A stretch of DNA of 64,000 bases from Candidatus Poribacteria bacterium (GTDB lineage Bacteria; Poribacteria; WGA-4E; WGA-3G): assembly GCA_965205015.1 (NCBI GenBank), contig OZ242029.1:1408001-1472000 (forward strand), written 5' to 3'. A model generated the notes under the pieces. That model did no database searches, was not told the origin of the DNA, and saw nothing but the letters and a program-made list of their open reading frames with translations. The translations under genes were made by a program, and so were the position numbers. Position 1 is the first letter of the stretch; each line of letters opens with the position of its first letter. This document shows positions 7,827 to 51,637 of this stretch, one piece after another.

Positions 7827-8597
7827 TTAAACGTTTGAATGCGACTGACAGCCATCAACGTTCACACAGGCACCCGTCACAAGACTCGCGCGTTCCGATG
7901 CGAGAAAAACGACGACATTTGCGATTTCTTCGGGCTTCCCGAACCTCCCCAGCGGCATATCGCTTTTTACAAAGGCTGCCATCGCTTCGGGATCCGCTGC
8001 GATGCGACGCGCCCAGCCACCCCCCGGAAACAGGATCGAACCCGGGGCAACACTATTCACGCGGATATTGTCCGGTGCGAGCTCCCTTGCCAACGACTTT
8101 GTCATGCTGATCTCGGCGGCTTTTGAAGCGTTGTAAGTGATGTGCCCGCCGCCCTCTCTCCCATAGATCGAGGTGATCATCAGAATCACACCACTCCCTT
8201 GCTTTTTCATTTCAGGGATCGCGCGTTGATTCACCCGCGCCGCAGATACAAGATTCAGGTCGAGGATTTCGTGCCATTCGGTGTCCGAAATCTCTTCGAG
8301 AGGGGTCCACCGACTGCCACCGACGTTGTTCACAACGACATCAATTCCACCATACGTTTCCACGGTTTCTGCGATGAACGCATCGACCTGTTCGCCATCC
8401 GTAACATCTGTAAGTTTGGCGAAAACCTCCGCGCCTTTTGCCGACAATTCACCCTGCACGTTTTGGAGCGTCTCTTGGGTTCTGCCACAGATGCTCAACC
8501 GTACACCTTCTTCAGCAAAACCGTGCGCGATAGCACGTCCGATACCGCGACTCGCCCCCGTTACAACGACCACTTTGTTCTTGAGTCCTAAGTCCAT
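7827..8597 (-). CDS. SDR family oxidoreductase (copy 1)
   Basis: TGASRGIG, NNVG, YNASK; start MDLGLKNK with GGAGA RBS. Confidence 0.93.
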   Translation of the reverse strand: MDLGLKNKVVVVTGASRGIGRAIAHGFAEEGVRLSICGRTQETLQNVQGELSAKGAEVFAKLTDVTDGEQVDAFIAETVETYGGIDVVVNNVGGSRWTPLEEISDTEWHEILDLNLVSAARVNQRAIPEMKKQGSGVILMITSIYGREGGGHITYNASKAAEISMTKSLARELAPDNIRVNSVAPGSILFPGGGWARRIAADPEAMAAFVKSDMPLGRFGKPEEIANVVVFLASERASLVTGACVNVDGCQSHSNV

Positions 8598-8652
8598 TAG
8601 ATCTCCCATTCCCTTTTGGAGTATGGGCTTAAAAACAAGCCCTAACATTTCT
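7834..8652. repeat. 819-bp direct repeat, copy 1 (copy 2 at 22357-23175)
   Basis: Sequence and alternative-frame ORF translations match at offset 14523. Confidence 0.95.
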
Positions 8653-38587: not shown

Positions 38588-39769
38588 TTATTTTTTCAAG
38601 GCTGCCCAAGTGCCGACCTGTTTCCGTCTAACCAGACTCGGTGCCGCCGGCGCCGGTTGCTTGTAGAACCCGGGAGACCCCATGTCTTCCCGATGTCCAT
38701 AGTAATAAACCTCCGAGGGCGACTCGCTCGGGACGACCTGATAAGAGACCCGCGCCTGGTTCTGATGGAGCGGTGCCACCGGATCCCCTAACGCACCAAA
38801 AGCTTCCCGACCGAGACGGTGAATCTCTGTGCCATCGGCATCCGTCAACACCCAGCCGAGTTTGAGGACGTTCTCTATGTTCAAGTTGTAGACCTGTGTG
38901 GAAACCTCTATCCCGGAAAACTTTCTCGCCGGGAGACGTTGCGTTGCTAAGATGACAACACCGCCCCCTGGAATACTAAACCCGTCCTCTGTTGCGGCGA
39001 GTGTCAGTGTGTGGACTTTATGGGGGGCGGTGGCCGACCGTCGGGTGGCGTATTGGAACGTGTAGCCTTTGAGGTTGACGGTTTCCTCGGTGTTGGGGTT
39101 ATATACCTCAATCCACTGTGGTAATCCACCACTCCCAGCAGACCAATCTCTGACCATATACTCTGTCACGCGTATCGGTTGCATCAGCGGAGACCCGGGG
39201 CGCCTTTCTTGAGACGCATTTGTCTCAATAGGGACCACCGATTGCGGGGGACCGGATGTCCTTGCCGGCGATTCAGTTGTGGTGTCTGGGGTGGTAGCCG
39301 GTGGACTGTTTCCCGTCCCTGTTGTAACGGGTATATCAGACACTGGGTCCACTGGAGGATCCGGTGTTGGATTCACTACTGCGGGATCTGGTGTTATATC
39401 CCGTTGACTTACCCTTAAACCTAAACCAGTCTGACTGCTACCTCCTCCCCGTTCCTGAACAGGCGGTTCCGGGTACCGTGAAGGATCCCACTCCGGTGAA
39501 GGCACTGACGGTCTCGGCGGTATCGTATTCTTATCACGGCTAAAATGAGCAATTAGGGTCCTGCCATCAGAATATTTATATTCATGCGTATGGACCCCTT
39601 CTTCGCCAGCTCTGGCAACATCGTGATAAGTCATCTCAACAGTAACCCCATCTCTTTTTGGTTCTTCAACCTCATGTGCGCTCACATACGATACTGTAAA
39701 TATAACCGCAGTCAAAGCGAGGGCACAGAGAATAGATAAAATGCTGAATCTAAACATTTTGAAATTCAT
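38588..39769 (-). CDS. Secreted lamin-tail-domain protein, paralog A
   Basis: Signal peptide, P/T linker, IRVTEYM..QWIEVYNP..VNLKGY; tail GTWAALKK. Confidence 0.85.
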   Translation of the reverse strand: MNFKMFRFSILSILCALALTAVIFTVSYVSAHEVEEPKRDGVTVEMTYHDVARAGEEGVHTHEYKYSDGRTLIAHFSRDKNTIPPRPSVPSPEWDPSRYPEPPVQERGGGSSQTGLGLRVSQRDITPDPAVVNPTPDPPVDPVSDIPVTTGTGNSPPATTPDTTTESPARTSGPPQSVVPIETNASQERRPGSPLMQPIRVTEYMVRDWSAGSGGLPQWIEVYNPNTEETVNLKGYTFQYATRRSATAPHKVHTLTLAATEDGFSIPGGGVVILATQRLPARKFSGIEVSTQVYNLNIENVLKLGWVLTDADGTEIHRLGREAFGALGDPVAPLHQNQARVSYQVVPSESPSEVYYYGHREDMGSPGFYKQPAPAAPSLVRRKQVGTWAALKK

Positions 39770-39781
39770 TTTTACATACCC

Positions 39782-40048
39782 TGCTGTGGAGATGGTCAAA
39801 AAAAAGGGGTCTCTATTAGTTTTCATACGCGTTAGTAGAAAGACTTTCATCTTGCGAAGAGGACTGAGCGCCAGAGGCGGGTCGCTTGACGCTTCAAACG
39901 TCTCCTCCTTTCTAATGCCCTATAGTTACTTGGGTCACTTTTTACTTATTTATCATATAAAATATAAATGACATAGGTAACTAAGGATTATACAAAATTT
40001 TCAGATAAAAAGCAAATTATATCTACAAAAATTGCTAATTTTTCTTAA
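39782..40048 (-). repeat. Duplicated promoter/leader module, copy A
   Basis: Near-identical to 41724-41988; TTGCTT(40015)-17-TATAAT(39987). Confidence 0.9.
39847..39897 (-). CDS. Putative 16-aa leader peptide MKRQATRLWRSVLFAR (copy A)
   Basis: AGAAAGGAGG SD, TTG start; same peptide in copy B. Confidence 0.55.
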   Translation of the reverse strand: MKRQATRLWRSVLFAR

Positions 40049-40144: not shown

Positions 40145-41440
40145 TTATTTTTTCAAGGCTGCCCAAGTGCCGACCTGTTTCCGTCTAACCAGACTCGGTG
40201 CCGCCGGCGCCGGTTGCTTGTAGAACCCGGGAGACCCCATGTCTTCCCGATGTCCATAGTAATAAACCTCCGGGGGCGACTCGCTCGGGACGACCTGATA
40301 AGAGACACGCGCCCCGTTCTGATGGAGCGGTGCCACCGGATCCCCTAACGCACTAAAGGCAGCCCTACCGAGACGCTGAATCTCCTTGCCATCGGCATCC
40401 GTCAACACCCACCCGCGTTTGAGGACGTTGTCTATGCTCAGGTTGTAGACCTGGGAGGCTCCAATACCGGAAAATCGCCATGCCGAAACTGTTTCGGTTG
40501 ATAGGATCGCGACACCGCCTCCCGCGATGCTGAACCCGTCCTCTGTTCCGGCGAGTGTCAGCGTATGGACTTTATAGGGGGCGGTGGCTGACCGTCGGGT
40601 GGCGTATTGGAACGTGTAGCCTTTGAGGTTGACTGCCTCGGTGTTGGGGTTATACACCTCAATCCACTGTGGTAATCCACCACTCCCAGCAGACCAATCT
40701 CTGACCATATACTCTGTGATGCGTATGGGTAATAAAGGTTGAGGCTCGGGTTGCGTTTCTGGTGTACCCTCAAGCGTTGTTCCGTATTTTTGTTGGGCTC
40801 TGAGGAAATTTTGTTCTGTGCTTGTGTCCACAGGGGTTCCGCTATCACCTGTTTCGGATGTCCCTTCAGATGTGCCACCCGTTGCTACCGTTGTGGGTTG
40901 AGGAACCGTCGGTTGGGTAACCGTTGGTTGATTATTAGGCGGCTGATTATTCGGTGGTTGATTATTCGGTGGCTGATCCACAGTCGTATCTGTGCGCCTA
41001 CCTACTCCATCGTGGTCGAAACTCCATGAAAGACCCGGGTGCGTGTGATCATCATCTCCTAGAGTATACGCGTGCGTGTGTGTCCCTGTATGTGTGTGAA
41101 CCACGTAGTCGTCATGTTGGTGGGTATAAAGGGTATGCGTATGCTCTGTATCGACGAGCTCTTCGCGCACCCAGTCTGTAATACCCTCATCATTAGAATG
41201 GAGATCACCGTGGGGAGTTTTCCAATGCTCGTGATACCGGGCGGGATCACCCTCCCCTCCGCCAGCCGTCGTCCCATAGTGCGAGTGGATTGCATTGCTA
41301 TGACAATGCCGCTTTCCATCATGATCATGACAAATAGTAACGTAATTAGGATTAGCAGGTGTGTGTGCGTATACAGATGAAATAGCCGTCAATACACTAA
41401 AAACGAATAAGACGCTAAAAGTCAGTATTCTTGAAACCAT
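40145..41440 (-). CDS. Secreted His-rich lamin-tail-domain protein, paralog B
   Basis: AAGGAG RBS, signal peptide, HxH-rich region, QPPNN x3, LTD, GTWAALKK. Confidence 0.85.
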   Translation of the reverse strand: MVSRILTFSVLFVFSVLTAISSVYAHTPANPNYVTICHDHDGKRHCHSNAIHSHYGTTAGGGEGDPARYHEHWKTPHGDLHSNDEGITDWVREELVDTEHTHTLYTHQHDDYVVHTHTGTHTHAYTLGDDDHTHPGLSWSFDHDGVGRRTDTTVDQPPNNQPPNNQPPNNQPTVTQPTVPQPTTVATGGTSEGTSETGDSGTPVDTSTEQNFLRAQQKYGTTLEGTPETQPEPQPLLPIRITEYMVRDWSAGSGGLPQWIEVYNPNTEAVNLKGYTFQYATRRSATAPYKVHTLTLAGTEDGFSIAGGGVAILSTETVSAWRFSGIGASQVYNLSIDNVLKRGWVLTDADGKEIQRLGRAAFSALGDPVAPLHQNGARVSYQVVPSESPPEVYYYGHREDMGSPGFYKQPAPAAPSLVRRKQVGTWAALKK

Positions 41441-41723
41441 TTTTCTAAATCTCCTTTTTTTGTAGACGTTGAAAGAATAACCGTTATCAAAACAAACGGT
41501 CGCGATACTTGCTGTAACAAAAATAGCCCGCAACGCGGCAAGCGTGTGGAAACGCAGCGCGGGCGGGCGCGCAAAAAAAAACCGCGACAGCAGCAGCGCT
41601 GCGGACGCAGTTCATGAGATAGATATGTAAAATTACTCTACTTGAGTTGAGTGGGGGGGGGAGACTCGCGTCTTGACTAACGACACACCAGCCGGATACC
41701 GGGACCCAGCACAGAGGCACGTT

Positions 41724-42110: not shown

Positions 42111-45035
42111 TTGATGACAACCAACACCTTGCAAGACCTGATTGCACGTTGCCACCAACGGCACGAGAAACCCCTTAAGCAACGCAAGTCGATCGTAGGA
42201 CCCCTGCTTTATCAAGGACTTCCTTACCATTTCACAGTCTATTGTGCACACAGACACCCTGTGATGCTTCAAGACTTGGAGGCGGCAGATATTTCCTTTA
42301 TGCCGATAGGACGGGTCCCGGGCAACGATCGCCCGCCGCGAGCTTTTGGGGGCAAACGGTTCTTGAAACGCCAACAGGCGACAGACTGGGAAATCCTTTA
42401 CTGGCATAAGTCGTGGGGGGTTCAAGTGTATACGGGTATCCCCTCAGCACGCGACAGCGCGTCATGGCATGACATCGACTTTAAGTATGAAGCCATCTGC
42501 GCCGCACCCGATGCCGTTTTTGCCTGCGTTCAGGCACTCGTTGATGCCGTTGAGAACCCGTTGCTAACGCTGTCAAAGTCGGGGGGACTGCGTTTTTCTT
42601 GCAGGATACCGGGGTATCTACATCCGAACACCCAGCAGGCACGGCTGTATATTCATAAGCACACACCGACATCGGAGAATCCGCACCAGCACGACACGTA
42701 TCTTGAAATTTTGGGTGAGCAGGGATATAGTTGCTGGGATGCGCGCTATGAAATTCTGCTCGGAGATCTGTTAGATCCGCCTGTGATTTCCAAAGAGGTG
42801 CTTTTTCCGCCTATTGACGCGCTTCGCGCTGCACTTCACAAACCTATCCCCCAAAACGTCCAACACGAGGCGCACCGCCCCGAGGCACCATATTCTCTCG
42901 GATCGGGTAACCTTAACCTCGCGAAAGAGGCATTTTTCAAGCGCGGGTTTTCTTATGCCAGACAAGCGGATGGAATTCACTATTGGAACCAACGGGGGAG
43001 TGAGACGGGCAATACAGAGGTATCATTGTGGGAGCGCGAAGGGACCGTATGGATATGTGCGTCTACACCTGAAACCGGGGTGCCTACAGACGCAACGCCA
43101 ATCACAGATGTTTGGAACGATACCGGGATCCTGCCACCGATCCCCGAGACAGGGCTGCCTATAGACGATAAGGTGCTTGCCATTCGGGAAGGAAAACTCA
43201 GTCCACTCTCAATGAAACGTCCCAAGCCGGTGTTAGACAAGTTGAGACCTACCGAAAAGATGGATGAAACACGCGAAGAAATTTGGGTTCAGATGCAGCG
43301 TGCTATCGATGCGGGGGTGAGCGTTCTTGGATTTATTCCCGCGGTAAATTCAGAGAAAGACGGTGAAGTCGGCACCACCCTGCGTCGCAATGGCGCAATC
43401 TGTTTAAATGTGCCGGATGCTGCGCTTGCGGCAGGCATAGAACAATTTTTTCAAAAGCAAAATGTGGGATCAGACGCACAAATACGCCAAGATTACCGAT
43501 TGTTTTTGGACCCACAATACGCAAAAATAGCCGAACAAATTCTCGAAGTGCGCGATGGAACACAGCAGCTCTGTATCATCAATATCACGAGAGAGAATGA
43601 CCTGTTTCTTAAATGCGAACTCCCAAAAACGACCTTGGAGAACTGGATTGCCAACTATCAGGAGAGTGCCTTAGGATACCTTGCCACAGCCCTCCTGAAT
43701 GCAATCGAAATCAGAGATAAATCTCATGTCAATTTTATCAAACGACTTCGGACAGTGATACAGGCATTTCAATGGCGGGAAGCAGAGATCATCCAACAGA
43801 TGTGCCACGGCGAGGTGGCGACGGTTGAAAACATTCAAGAGTTTCCAACCGTTTCTTCGGATCCAAACTGGACGTTTTGGCATCAAGTCAAACGCTTCTT
43901 TGCACATTACACGCGGGACACTGATGCTCCGATGCGATGGAAGAACCAAGTGCTACGCTTCTGGGTGCCGCCGGTGCTGCATCCACGCATCAAACACCTT
44001 TTTGTCACCTCATCGGCGCTCTACGGCGAGCATCTCCGTCGAGCGTTCCTGGATGCGGAAACCGAGACCCTTCCTGCCCAACCCATGGCGTGGGTACCTG
44101 GAAACTGCGTTTTTCAGATTCGCACCGGTACGTATCCACGGCGGACACTCTTAGACCTCTACAACACTTGGGACGTTTTTGGAATTTCTGAAACCGGGCA
44201 GCAGATTTTTTCCAGGATCCAAACTGAAATAGAAAGGGATCCGAGTGTTAAGCACGGCATTCTCACCCACGATCAGGCAATTAAACAGTTGGGGAATATC
44301 GCGAAAAATGAGAATGTCTGTTTCCTGACGGGATTCCGAAACAGAAAAGGATTGGAAACCGCTTTTCAAGAAGCAGAAGTCATCTGGATAGTGGGCATGC
44401 CGGAAATGGGACCCCGCGCCATTTTACAGCGCACCCAGGTCCTGTTTGGAAACGACGAAGAACCGCTTTCTTATGAAATGGAACGTGAGTCCTACCGTTA
44501 CAAAGACGGGCGCGCCCAGAGCGTCTATGAAAAGGATATCGTCTCCATATTCACACAGGTTATAGCGTTAGCGCAACTCAACCGTTTGGCAAATAAGAAA
44601 GTTATGTTGATTACGGGTTTGCGAATTCCTGGGATTACCGACAGACCTGAAACCCACCTTTTTGACTGGGAAGATCTTGAGGTCGCCGGTCGCTTAGACA
44701 AACTTTCTGAGGCGATAGCGACACGCCAACGCTTTGAAAGAGAACGGGACAATCTAACGGCTGAATCCAGCAGAAAAGAGGTAGAGCGGGTTCTCGGATG
44801 CTCCCCAAGGCAGGCGAGTCGAGTGTTGCAAAAGTTAAGGGGCGGGAAAATTGTCCGAGCGCCGCTCCGCGAGCAGATCCTCGCGCTTCTTGCCGATGGA
44901 GAGAAAAAAACACCCGAACTCACCGCAGCGATTCAAGGACACCCAAAAGCAATAAATACAAAACTCACGCGCCTTGTCAACGCCGGTGAAATTGTAAAGG
45001 TGCGACGGGGCGTGTATAGGCTGCCAGAACATTAG
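42111..45035 (+). CDS. Large hypothetical protein: primase-polymerase-like N-terminus, C-terminal HTH domains
   Basis: WHDIDF, LSKSGGLRF; C-terminal LTRLVNAGEIVKVRRGVYRL winged helix. Confidence 0.7.
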   Translation: MMTTNTLQDLIARCHQRHEKPLKQRKSIVGPLLYQGLPYHFTVYCAHRHPVMLQDLEAADISFMPIGRVPGNDRPPRAFGGKRFLKRQQATDWEILYWHKSWGVQVYTGIPSARDSASWHDIDFKYEAICAAPDAVFACVQALVDAVENPLLTLSKSGGLRFSCRIPGYLHPNTQQARLYIHKHTPTSENPHQHDTYLEILGEQGYSCWDARYEILLGDLLDPPVISKEVLFPPIDALRAALHKPIPQNVQHEAHRPEAPYSLGSGNLNLAKEAFFKRGFSYARQADGIHYWNQRGSETGNTEVSLWEREGTVWICASTPETGVPTDATPITDVWNDTGILPPIPETGLPIDDKVLAIREGKLSPLSMKRPKPVLDKLRPTEKMDETREEIWVQMQRAIDAGVSVLGFIPAVNSEKDGEVGTTLRRNGAICLNVPDAALAAGIEQFFQKQNVGSDAQIRQDYRLFLDPQYAKIAEQILEVRDGTQQLCIINITRENDLFLKCELPKTTLENWIANYQESALGYLATALLNAIEIRDKSHVNFIKRLRTVIQAFQWREAEIIQQMCHGEVATVENIQEFPTVSSDPNWTFWHQVKRFFAHYTRDTDAPMRWKNQVLRFWVPPVLHPRIKHLFVTSSALYGEHLRRAFLDAETETLPAQPMAWVPGNCVFQIRTGTYPRRTLLDLYNTWDVFGISETGQQIFSRIQTEIERDPSVKHGILTHDQAIKQLGNIAKNENVCFLTGFRNRKGLETAFQEAEVIWIVGMPEMGPRAILQRTQVLFGNDEEPLSYEMERESYRYKDGRAQSVYEKDIVSIFTQVIALAQLNRLANKKVMLITGLRIPGITDRPETHLFDWEDLEVAGRLDKLSEAIATRQRFERERDNLTAESSRKEVERVLGCSPRQASRVLQKLRGGKIVRAPLREQILALLADGEKKTPELTAAIQGHPKAINTKLTRLVNAGEIVKVRRGVYRLPEH

Positions 45036-45172
45036 GACAGAAGGATGCGTCTTATGCACCAGCTGCACACCAGTGAGGTGGCTACAGAAACCCACCCTAT
45101 CTATTAAAGCCCATAATCACCTATTCACCTTTTATAGTTGGCGAGGTTAGGAAACCTCGCCAGCAAAGCGAG

Positions 45173-45467
45173 AGTAGGCGTAGTCCAGTTAGGTCAATGT
45201 ACCCAAGCCTAAAGGCATTGGGCTTGTAAAAAGCCTGTTTGCCTCGTGCTTCGTTAGTGTTTCTCGTTTCATAGAGGGTCGTAACCGACCGCTCTCCACG
45301 AAGGGTGCAAGCCACCCTAAAAAAGTTTCTCGCTGGCGGTTAAGCCAATACAAAATGCGAGAGTGCCCACCTCAAGTTTCTGTTTCTTTTCCGTATTGTG
45401 CTGTAGCTTTACACAAGTCGCACACGGGGATAGCGAACAGCAGCATAACTTGCAACCTTGCACTACG
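45173..45467 (-). ncRNA. TnpB omega-RNA-like transcript with 3' flank-derived guide
   Basis: TTCG-TGGAG...TGAAA-CGAG-AA core; upstream consensus promoter; no ORF. Confidence 0.6.
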
Positions 45468-45589
45468 AAAGATATTATACCACAACTTCGGACCAAGTGT
45501 CAAAGAAAAAATGAACACTTTGGTCCTTTCCAAGAGGGCGGATTTTCCTCCCAAACTTAAAAGTTTGGGCTTCCAATCCGTAAACTTAG
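45193..45589 (-). mobile_element. Non-autonomous IS200/IS605 mini-element without tnpA/tnpB
   Basis: Related subterminal hairpins AAGCCCAAACTTTTAAGTTTGGG (left) and AAGCCCAATGCCTTTAGGCTTGGG..TTGAC (right); left boundary 45579-45589. Confidence 0.72.
45474..45503 (-). promoter_or_regulatory. sigma70 promoter inside the mini-element
   Basis: TTGACA-18-TATAAT with TGn extension. Confidence 0.8.
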
Positions 45590-45609
45590 GTGAAAGAACC
45601 CTACCGTGT

Positions 45610-46428
45610 TTAAGTACCCCACGATTCAAGCCCAAGGAGTTTTTCTCCTAAAGGGGTCAACTCGGCTGTCTTACCCTGGTAATGCTCTTTCTCTTTTGTC
45701 TCTCTTCCGAGGCCCGTTAGACGTTCACGCCATCCCTCAATTCGGGACGCAGCATTGCCATTCTCCGGTGCAGGCGACATCGTGATGTATTGCGCCATGC
45801 GGGGACGCTCAGCGGAGTTCGGACTACTGCCGTGTGGCAATGCGCTATGCCAAATGACCAAGTCTCCAGCTTTCCCTGCGACCGGCACCGCCTCCGCTTG
45901 ATAGTCTCGCACGACTTCTTTCGGATTCGCGTCATCAGGTAAGCCGTTCAACCAGTTTTCCAACTTCCGATGAAAACCCGGAATACAGGTGAATGCGCCT
46001 TGATTCCCAGGGGTATCCGCCAGATACAAAACACCCTGCACCTTTAAGCGCACCGGCATATTGTCCAATGACATATCCCAATGCAAAAACGGACCCGTGA
46101 ACGTATAATCCGAACGTTCGGGTGGGTTCATACTCGCCCGATCAAAACTGACCCAGAGTTTCTCAGTACTCCAAATCTCAGAGAACGCCTGATGCACACG
46201 AGGATATTGACGGTTATCCCATAACGCTTGGTGTTGATAAATCTCCACCATGATGCTTCGGCGCGGTGGGTCGGGATACCAACTGTCCGGATCATCACGG
46301 TCCATTTCAAGAAAATCCCAGACAGCCTGTTCCGCGGCTCGGCAATTCTCAAGTGGCACCGCTTCCGGCACAACGACGTAACCGTTCTCTTCCCAAAATT
46401 CTAAGGCTTCTGCGTCAAAAACTGGCAT
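45610..46428 (-). CDS. Phytanoyl-CoA dioxygenase (PhyH) family protein
   Basis: FWEENGYVVV, LHWD, GDLVIWHSALPHGS. Confidence 0.9.
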   Translation of the reverse strand: MPVFDAEALEFWEENGYVVVPEAVPLENCRAAEQAVWDFLEMDRDDPDSWYPDPPRRSIMVEIYQHQALWDNRQYPRVHQAFSEIWSTEKLWVSFDRASMNPPERSDYTFTGPFLHWDMSLDNMPVRLKVQGVLYLADTPGNQGAFTCIPGFHRKLENWLNGLPDDANPKEVVRDYQAEAVPVAGKAGDLVIWHSALPHGSSPNSAERPRMAQYITMSPAPENGNAASRIEGWRERLTGLGRETKEKEHYQGKTAELTPLGEKLLGLESWGT

Positions 46429-46738
46429 GAGTCTCTCCTTAACGTGAGTTCGGTAAATCATAGTACATTTTTCTATAGACCTATTGCTCCGATGGAGCAA
46501 AAAACGACTTCGTGTGACGCGAGTTGGGTCACCCGTGTAGCATTCGTTAGATCGCAACTTGGGTTAACGTAGTTTTAAGAATACCACAAAAGATTACGCA
46601 AATCAAACTTTTCGATGACACTCGCGTGTCATCCAACGTTTGAAAAATTTTCTTGCAATCAATTGCGCCTTGTGCTAAAGTACGGATACTCCGATCTACA
46701 AAATTGAGTGAACATTGAGACGAAGGAGAAAGCTCACA

Positions 46739-51260: not shown

Positions 51261-51637
51261 AGCAACCTATACAGACTCCTTAAAAGAAGATTGTAACAAG
51301 TCTATCACAGATTCCGAGTTTTGTCCAATTTTTTAATGATTCGCAAGGCATTAAATCACCTGATGGGTTTAATATGAGTTTTCGCTCGCTGACTGTTCGT
51401 TCGATGAAGTTTGCCTTCATTGGGCGTTTAAGGGAACTGTAACGCCATGTGCGGTACAGATTTTAGTTTCATCTTTTTCCATCTTATGGTATATTAATTA
51501 TAGTAGATCCTACAATTAAATGGACACCCAAGAGTTGGCGAGGTTAGAAACCTCGCCAGCGGCGGCGCAGGGTTTTGTGTTTTAGAGAGTGTTCACTTAT
51601 TTCTGGGTTTTACTATAAATCAGAAAGGATAGACACC

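Follow-up and report, generated by a model that had tools for sequence, protein, structure and literature searches.

A gene-less IS605-type mini-element of Candidatus Poribacteria with a TnpB omega-RNA scaffold and a conserved pseudoknotted 5' RNA domain

Gene-less elements that carry an omega-RNA are treated as deletion relics. A short stretch of DNA from the sponge symbiont Candidatus Poribacteria, within the 64,000 nucleotides that we call the window and to which all coordinates without a locus name refer, raises the question of whether such an element can also be a built unit, and what its RNA would then do. The original prediction was a protein-less mini-element expressing an omega-RNA to be loaded in trans by a TnpB or TldR encoded elsewhere. 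A tnpB-less mini-element with an omega-RNA scaffold is indeed present. It is of the IS605 type and occupies 397 bp on the minus strand (45193-45589). Its neighbours, both with their 3' ends towards it, are a phyH-family gene (45610-46461, minus strand) and a gene for a 974-aa protein (42111-45035, plus strand). The parts of the element and the adjoining host DNA are as follows.

45590..45594, minus strand: TTCAC, the target word (TAM), which belongs to the host DNA and is kept in the empty allele directly before the 3' flank
45537..45589, minus strand: left end with an imperfect hairpin (45580-45539), recognised by its DNA fold and by identity to the left ends of tnpB elements
45474..45503, minus strand: sigma-70 promoter TTGACA-18-TG-TATAAT with an extended TG
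45379..45466, minus strand: conserved pseudoknotted 5' RNA domain of 88 nt (M1), starting 7 nt after the -10 box
45320..45378, minus strand: variable middle stem-loop region, not recognisably derived from tnpB, common to a subgroup of siblings (L053, L055, L089, L091)
45193..45319, minus strand: TnpB omega-RNA scaffold including the right end, aligning to the 3' end of tnpB elements L074, L075, L066 and L040
45193..45226, minus strand: right-end hairpin and terminal TTGAC (45197-45193), from a pattern scan of GTDB genomes
45177..45192, minus strand: 3' flank of 16 nt as would-be guide, ordinary host DNA that directly follows TTCAC in the empty allele
45138..45165, no strand assigned: host REP-like hairpin with a second copy at 51533-51560, found in empty alleles and not part of the element

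Boundaries of the element and its tnpB-bearing relatives

The ends of the element are fixed by related genomes. We took from these 30 loci with the neighbouring phyH gene, matches to which reach 92% in Ca. Poribacteria. None of the 30 carries the mini-element at this site. The empty allele, whose search had been set beforehand as a refutation check, is found at eight loci, where TTTCAC runs straight on into a flank-like stretch and the REP hairpin; three further loci are an empty site with local changes, and the remainder continue into different downstream DNA. Because these relatives read TTTCAC and then the flank, without the element, its ends fall exactly at 45193 and 45589 and the insertion is scarless, directly after TTCAC and with no target duplication. 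The predicted extent (45173..45589) therefore shrinks, as 45173-45192 is flank, and of the two target words proposed the empty allele upholds TTCAC but not TTTAC. The REP hairpin (fold z -5.75) is host DNA older than the insertion, since it is already in the empty allele. Its suggested role as the transcript end is not supported: on the minus strand it has no U-run, and no terminator is called there. Contigs of a different sponge DNA run span the left junction and the element interior. One contig of an RNA run joins 45106 to 45609; we reject the reading of this joint as a clean excision, as the contig represents a relative that lacks the REP hairpin as well as the element.

The interior is free of ORFs, as had been claimed: between promoter and right end no ATG-started sense frame exceeds 24 codons, and reading all six frames of the 397 bp reveals neither a tnpA nor a tnpB gene. 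Within the 64-kb window blastn finds no second copy of the element, and inspection by eye finds no TnpB-like ORF among those of at least 150 aa, a cut-off below which a 140-aa tnpA would fall. The predicted left-end hairpin is real (-11.8 kcal/mol folded as DNA, z -2.4 versus shuffles). At the right end both the predicted hairpin and the terminal TTGAC are present, but the hairpin folded alone is weak (z -1.3). The right-end pattern has 52 matches across GTDB genomes, 14 of which bear the label Ca. Poribacteria; nearly all matches continue into a TTGAC- or CTCAC-like end and unrelated flanks. Like a PATE or other non-autonomous IS200/IS605 element, it has subterminal hairpins at both ends. The motifs pointed out originally, AGGGTG/CACCCT and TTCGTGGAG..TGAAACGAGAA, are likewise present.

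The last ~127 nt of the element correspond to the omega-RNA plus right end found in IS1341-type tnpB elements of Ca. Poribacteria. When the last 130 nt are set against the 3' end of L074, different base pairs uphold both stems, and the coding spacer is shorter. The scaffold is kept for ~90 nt inward of the right-end hairpin, one frame in it still resembles the TnpB C-terminus, and the 130-nt core folds at z -4.0. The parents that had been foreseen, with tnpB and the same left end, promoter and omega-RNA, exist (e.g., L074, L075 and L039); the left end of the mini-element is 77-88% identical to those of tnpB elements such as L075, L062 and L068, and TCAC or TCAT precedes the matching left end in tnpB parents and siblings alike. 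L039 is a full element running from left end through tnpB to right end, and the right-end scan also gave two sibling minis. L074 and L039 pass NCBIfam NF040570 (guided_TnpB), and L074, the closest parent of the scaffold, has all three RuvC acidic motifs (AVDVG, AEDL, DRDHNA). A TldR partner finds no support here, since the two parents scanned belong to the ordinary TnpB family.

The sibling minis, also predicted, number in the dozens, occur in many genomes and sit at unrelated sites. In all five genomes searched they coexist with many pairs of left end and omega-RNA core ~1.35 kb apart, which are tnpB-only elements. Y1 transposases score above cut-off in all five related genomes; among 14 tnpA-bearing loci, blastn at E 0.01 found no tnpA element matching the ends of the mini-element.

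Several observations on related loci and on the window stand apart from this comparison. IscB-type elements (L005, L020, L025, L030 and L033; Pfam RRXRR in L020) use the right-end hairpin of the TnpB elements in the opposite reading. The same host site holds different elements in different genomes (L107/L184, L122/L209, L005/L081 and L112/L126), the pairs being a mini and a tnpB parent, two module variants, or an IscB and a TnpB element; this is an indication of hot spots or of conversion by homing. Some derivatives are truncated or much shorter (L035:1240-1290, L231, L232, L085 and L124); they are either fused left-end and right-end hairpins of ~50 bp or a left end, promoter and partial module pointing into host DNA. 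Elsewhere in the window, two near-identical short-chain dehydrogenase-like genes (7827-8648 and 22350-23171; 99% over 300 nt) lie 14.5 kb apart, and 38588-39850, 40145-41533 and 59257-63015 hold duplicated secreted proteins that share a C-terminal domain and have His- or Pro-rich repeats, as well as a 1252-aa protein with 22-residue repeats. For the 974-aa protein beside the element the sole match is a C-terminal helix-turn-helix (Pfam AbiEi_4), and each related genome has several paralogues of this protein.

The promoter and the conserved 5' RNA domain

The promoter claimed on the minus strand at 45503-45474 (TTGACA-18-TATAAT) holds, with 12 of 12 positions matching; two promoter-like sites were seen, compared with 0.4 expected in shuffles. 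In 38 of 53 copies a -10 and a -35 box stand at a fixed distance from the RNA domain, an arrangement found at 84 of 3240 control positions (2.6%), and because of this fixed spacing the 5' RNA domain likely starts at the transcription start. The whole predicted transcript (45470-45130) folds at z -4.2. Contigs in two metatranscriptome assemblies cover the scaffold and the module; these are sister copies, since they differ from the window at 7-10 positions and then run into other flanks, and the contigs, which carry neither strand, ends nor level, may stem from DNA. The comparison covered four of 20 sequencing runs. Relative to the phyH gene, summed depth over the module is far higher in one RNA run and lower in the other. 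A weaker outward promoter-like site (9/12; 45450-45478, plus strand) shares sequence with both the -10 box and the beginning of the RNA domain. In siblings such as L084, L093 and L207 an operator-like inverted repeat, TTGAC-N7-GTCAA, lies over the -35 box; in that form it is absent from the window copy.

The 5' third of the ~275 nt without an ORF is a separate conserved RNA domain, M1, which the original prediction did not contain. It is more strongly conserved than either end of the element, and the middle region that follows it is replaced by other stem-loops in the siblings outside the subgroup named above. M1 has matches in 37 of 175 Poribacteria genomes, at 1-5 per genome, and its covariance model finds it in 34 of the 64 genomes of one genus. 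The five-helix pseudoknotted model pairs 97.6% of cells, compared with 26-47% in slid controls. Alignment A1, whose rows are related, contains 24 double changes, 21 of them at one base pair; once five distant variants are added, 5 of the 14 core pairs have double changes. RNAalifold proposed that the first bases pair with CGCTAY instead; this pairing was rejected, as it shows no double change versus two for the chosen pairing. The layout is a double pseudoknot to which the variants add, or in which they swap, peripheral helices, and all variants keep the unpaired words RGGTT before helix P2 and GTAAA after it, between helices that covary.

The domain is combined with different scaffolds. The 55 distinct module loci comprise 21 with omega-RNA type A, 25 with type B, two with type C and seven left untyped because of truncation, a contig end or a miss by the pattern. 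In no case is the module followed by a tnpB or tnpA gene. A wider model adds a fourth omega-RNA type, with 17 matches in genome G111. Seven of the eight of these that were fetched are near-identical at different sites, which shows recent mobility. This recent burst in G111 (L306-L310, L316 and L317) uses the target word TTAT and ends in GTCAG. A second form of the domain, M2, occupies the same slot in 24 of the 175 genomes, some of the matches being promoter-only or truncated; it also covaries, and variants with an M2 hairpin and an M1 body unite the two forms, by eye, as one family. In six genomes (L312:240-420, L313, L315, L319, L321 and L323) the domain also stands by itself, with neither omega-RNA nor right end, ~20 nt ahead of the ribosome site of a gene for a 211-215-aa lipoprotein-like protein. 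This possibly reflects domestication as a cis element.

Known RNA classes do not account for the domain. Rfam returns nothing near cut-off for the window, the siblings, the parents or the host-leader copy, and exact-pattern searches give no match in the JGI metagenomes and IMG/VR. Outside Poribacteria, M1 is found in none of five genomes of other phyla that share the right end and in none of 151 genomes of one Chloroflexota class. A search of openly readable literature turned up no description of the domain or of such Poribacteria elements. A small protein in the module, suggested by a CxxC peptide readable in the window copy, was rejected: the ATG is in frame in 13 of 56 copies, six of 56 have a stop, and one-base length changes occur. 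A pistol ribozyme, plain or permuted, fits neither the 5' domain nor the leader of the tnpB parents. Pistol features, as given in the accessible parts of PMC6154101 and PMC7027511, include purine-32/G33, G40-C41-G42 after a 6-bp pseudoknot and a G-U site between P3 and P2; the base resembling G42 pairs and covaries in a helix of the parent leader, and that place is an invariant A in the module. Likenesses to HDV-like, twister and hammerhead ribozymes, group II domain V, cobalamin and raiA RNAs were rejected by eye and on the negative Rfam result, and an IStron or a group I or II intron was rejected as Rfam gives no match at E up to 1-10. M1 is an uncatalogued structured RNA, and it probably protects or trims the guide transcript.

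One could assume that the mini-element arose from a parent by plain internal deletion. The tnpB-only parents carry a ~95-nt pseudoknotted 5' leader of their own, with double changes at 20 of 33 pairs and 30-53 matches per genome in all five genomes (alignment A3: L039:4279-4373, L062:2706-2800, L167:281-376 and 19 more). By eye this leader and M1 have a similar start and a TAAA word; their homology is not significant either way, and the leader model R2 finds four further leaders and not the module. Since M1 differs from the parents' leader and neither model finds the other, the mini-element is not a plain internal deletion of the parent. The tnpB-only elements have no clear Shine-Dalgarno sequence before tnpB; their leader has no Rfam match, and the tnpA-first elements that were seen lack it.

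The guide and the possible roles of the transcript

By the arrangement of the sequences, the guide that the 3' flank would supply matches the empty site next to the TAM. The further suggestion that it is aimed at other copies of the flank is not supported: five related genomes contain two matches within two mismatches versus 31 for the reversed control, so that no further targets are indicated. At nearly every copy of the mini the guide is a different piece of local flank.

The sister minis reveal a preference in where they land. The left end was placed by pattern in 37 of 64 minis, and the other 27 were dropped. Of these, 28 have TCAT as their target word. In 16 of the 28 the guide contains an anti-Shine-Dalgarno word and an ORF of at least 80 codons opens at the reverse-strand ATGA; for TCAT words in general the figures are 61 of 3105 within the loci themselves and 19 of 221 between genes in neutral DNA. 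Because some sites are common to several species, these counts are not fully independent. Such minis (L053, L102, L107, L111, L213, L216, L220, L225, L239 and others) lie antisense between the host Shine-Dalgarno sequence and the ATG, and 16 of 18 of the ORFs, which were picked for length, have Pfam domains. Read backwards, the left end presents AGGAG, a hairpin and a spacing of 7-9 bases to the ATG. The tnpB parents are at start codons in one of ten cases (p 0.012; the target word was placed in 16 of 60 regions). The window copy is not at a start codon, as its target word is TTCAC and its frame spans 7 codons. An element that lands on a start codon and brings a ribosome site along would have a second possible way to stay harmless.

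We think it probable that the mini-element is the source of a trans-loaded guide RNA whose 5' domain acts as a protective cap. Its own promoter would make a single RNA of ~290 nt comprising the knotted 5' domain, the TnpB omega-RNA and the flank-derived guide. By analogy with known IS200/IS605 biology, a Y1 TnpA acting in trans may mobilise the mini, and TnpB from full-length elements elsewhere would load the omega-RNA in trans and trim its 5' part. TnpB would then cut the TTCAC-flank alleles left by excision, and recombination would restore the element, a form of homing. The 5' domain, beginning at the transcription start, is proposed to be a folded cap against 5'-end-dependent decay until TnpB binds; on this step by itself we are evenly divided. 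A cap would explain why the 5' domain persists through swaps of ends and of omega-RNA type, and how it can act by itself as the leader of a host mRNA. A bolder version strikes us as rather doubtful: that the 5' domain founds a new class of catalytic or end-protecting RNAs giving mature, long-lived guides without translation, modular across at least four omega-RNA families and domesticated as a host lipoprotein-like leader.

The same element, used in the same way in trans, could instead have in its 5' domain an uncatalogued self-cleaving RNA that leaves a 5'-OH end and matures the guide without TnpB. The words RGGTT and GTAAA, kept unpaired between covarying helices while peripheral helices vary, would suit such an RNA, as would the double pseudoknot, its constant place at the predicted 5' end and its presence alone on a host leader. 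However, no Rfam ribozyme matches, the pistol features are absent, HDV-like, twister and group II domain V layouts do not fit by eye, and a dedicated promoter already sets the 5' end; we consider self-cleavage unlikely. One might also see the element as a passive, MITE-like passenger, moved by TnpA alone, that keeps its omega-RNA through the overlap with the right end, is refreshed by recombination with the parents and is never effectively loaded. Many copies are truncated, and ends and omega-RNA types are mixed as freely as recombination would lead one to expect. Yet ~90 nt of scaffold inside the right-end hairpin are kept, including two intact stems and a trimmed coding spacer, and promoter spacing and 5' domain are conserved across species, so that we find a passive passenger quite unlikely.

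The RNA might serve regulation, either as a stable sponge that damps the TnpB nuclease or as a guide for TnpB or TldR at host or phage targets. Genomes mostly have 1-3 minis beside 30-53 leader-bearing elements, the promoter is strong, and in many sisters the guide runs antisense to the ribosome-binding site of a host gene. The latter guides, however, follow from the TCAT target word; guides are local flank that differs at nearly every copy, the window guide has no excess of matches, and the minis keep both ends and move, all of which makes a regulatory role very unlikely in our view. Finally, the functional RNA could lie on the plus strand, as an IscB-type omega-RNA (HEARO) starting with GTCAA at 45193. 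There is a weak match at 45193-45313, and the IscB elements L005 and L020 of Poribacteria genomes share the end hairpin, which accounts for that match. The score is 13.9 bits against a cut-off of 83 (RF02033), and both the alignment of the interior to tnpB 3' ends and the full 12/12 promoter are on the minus strand; a plus-strand RNA is thus extremely improbable.

For the trans-loaded guide RNA that we favour, the family offers a direct test, both of the loading of PATE omega-RNAs in trans and of the survival of an untranslated precursor. M1, with its many natural variants, lends itself to assays of cleavage and stability and might serve as a natural stabiliser of TnpB guides.

Comparison with known systems

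It is already known that an element without genes can carry an omega-RNA dependent on TnpB in trans: in the accessible text of Meers et al. (10.1101/2023.03.14.532601), PATE elements are described as often encoding omega-RNAs that require action in trans. The PATE of Geobacillus stearothermophilus, as far as that text describes it, resembles the window element in having no protein gene, hairpin ends, a TAM outside the left end, a TEM at the right end, an omega-RNA that needs TnpB in trans and a scarless empty site. It differs in that, in the Poribacteria elements, a conserved pseudoknotted domain and a middle stem-loop separate the promoter from the omega-RNA, and that domain is joined to several omega-RNA types.

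A structured RNA 5' of the omega-RNA in one transcript is also a feature of the IS605-family IStrons and the IStron-ended PATE of Clostridioides difficile, according to the accessible portion of 10.1101/2023.11.20.567912, which also reports that an IS607-family IStron TnpB is equally active with its omega-RNA in trans and that 5' processing depends on RuvC. Unlike the C. difficile IStrons as portrayed there, the window element has no group I intron match, its domain follows an internal promoter and is not at the left end, and the last base of the element is C and not a splice-site G. The HEARO/IscB omega-RNA (RF02033) has the same end hairpin on the other strand; both its strand and its layout are opposite, and the match stays at 13.9 of the 83 bits.

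The IS1341-group tnpB-only elements of Ca. Poribacteria (NF040570, or PF01385 with PF07282; L074, L075 and L039) share with the window element the left end, the promoter region, the omega-RNA core, the right end and the preceding TCAY. In contrast to the window mini with its M1, these parents have tnpB and a ~95-nt leader of their own. With its promoter, 5' fold and trimmed scaffold, the family looks built. What is new here is that tnpB has not simply been deleted but has been replaced by M1, which is fused to at least four types of omega-RNA.
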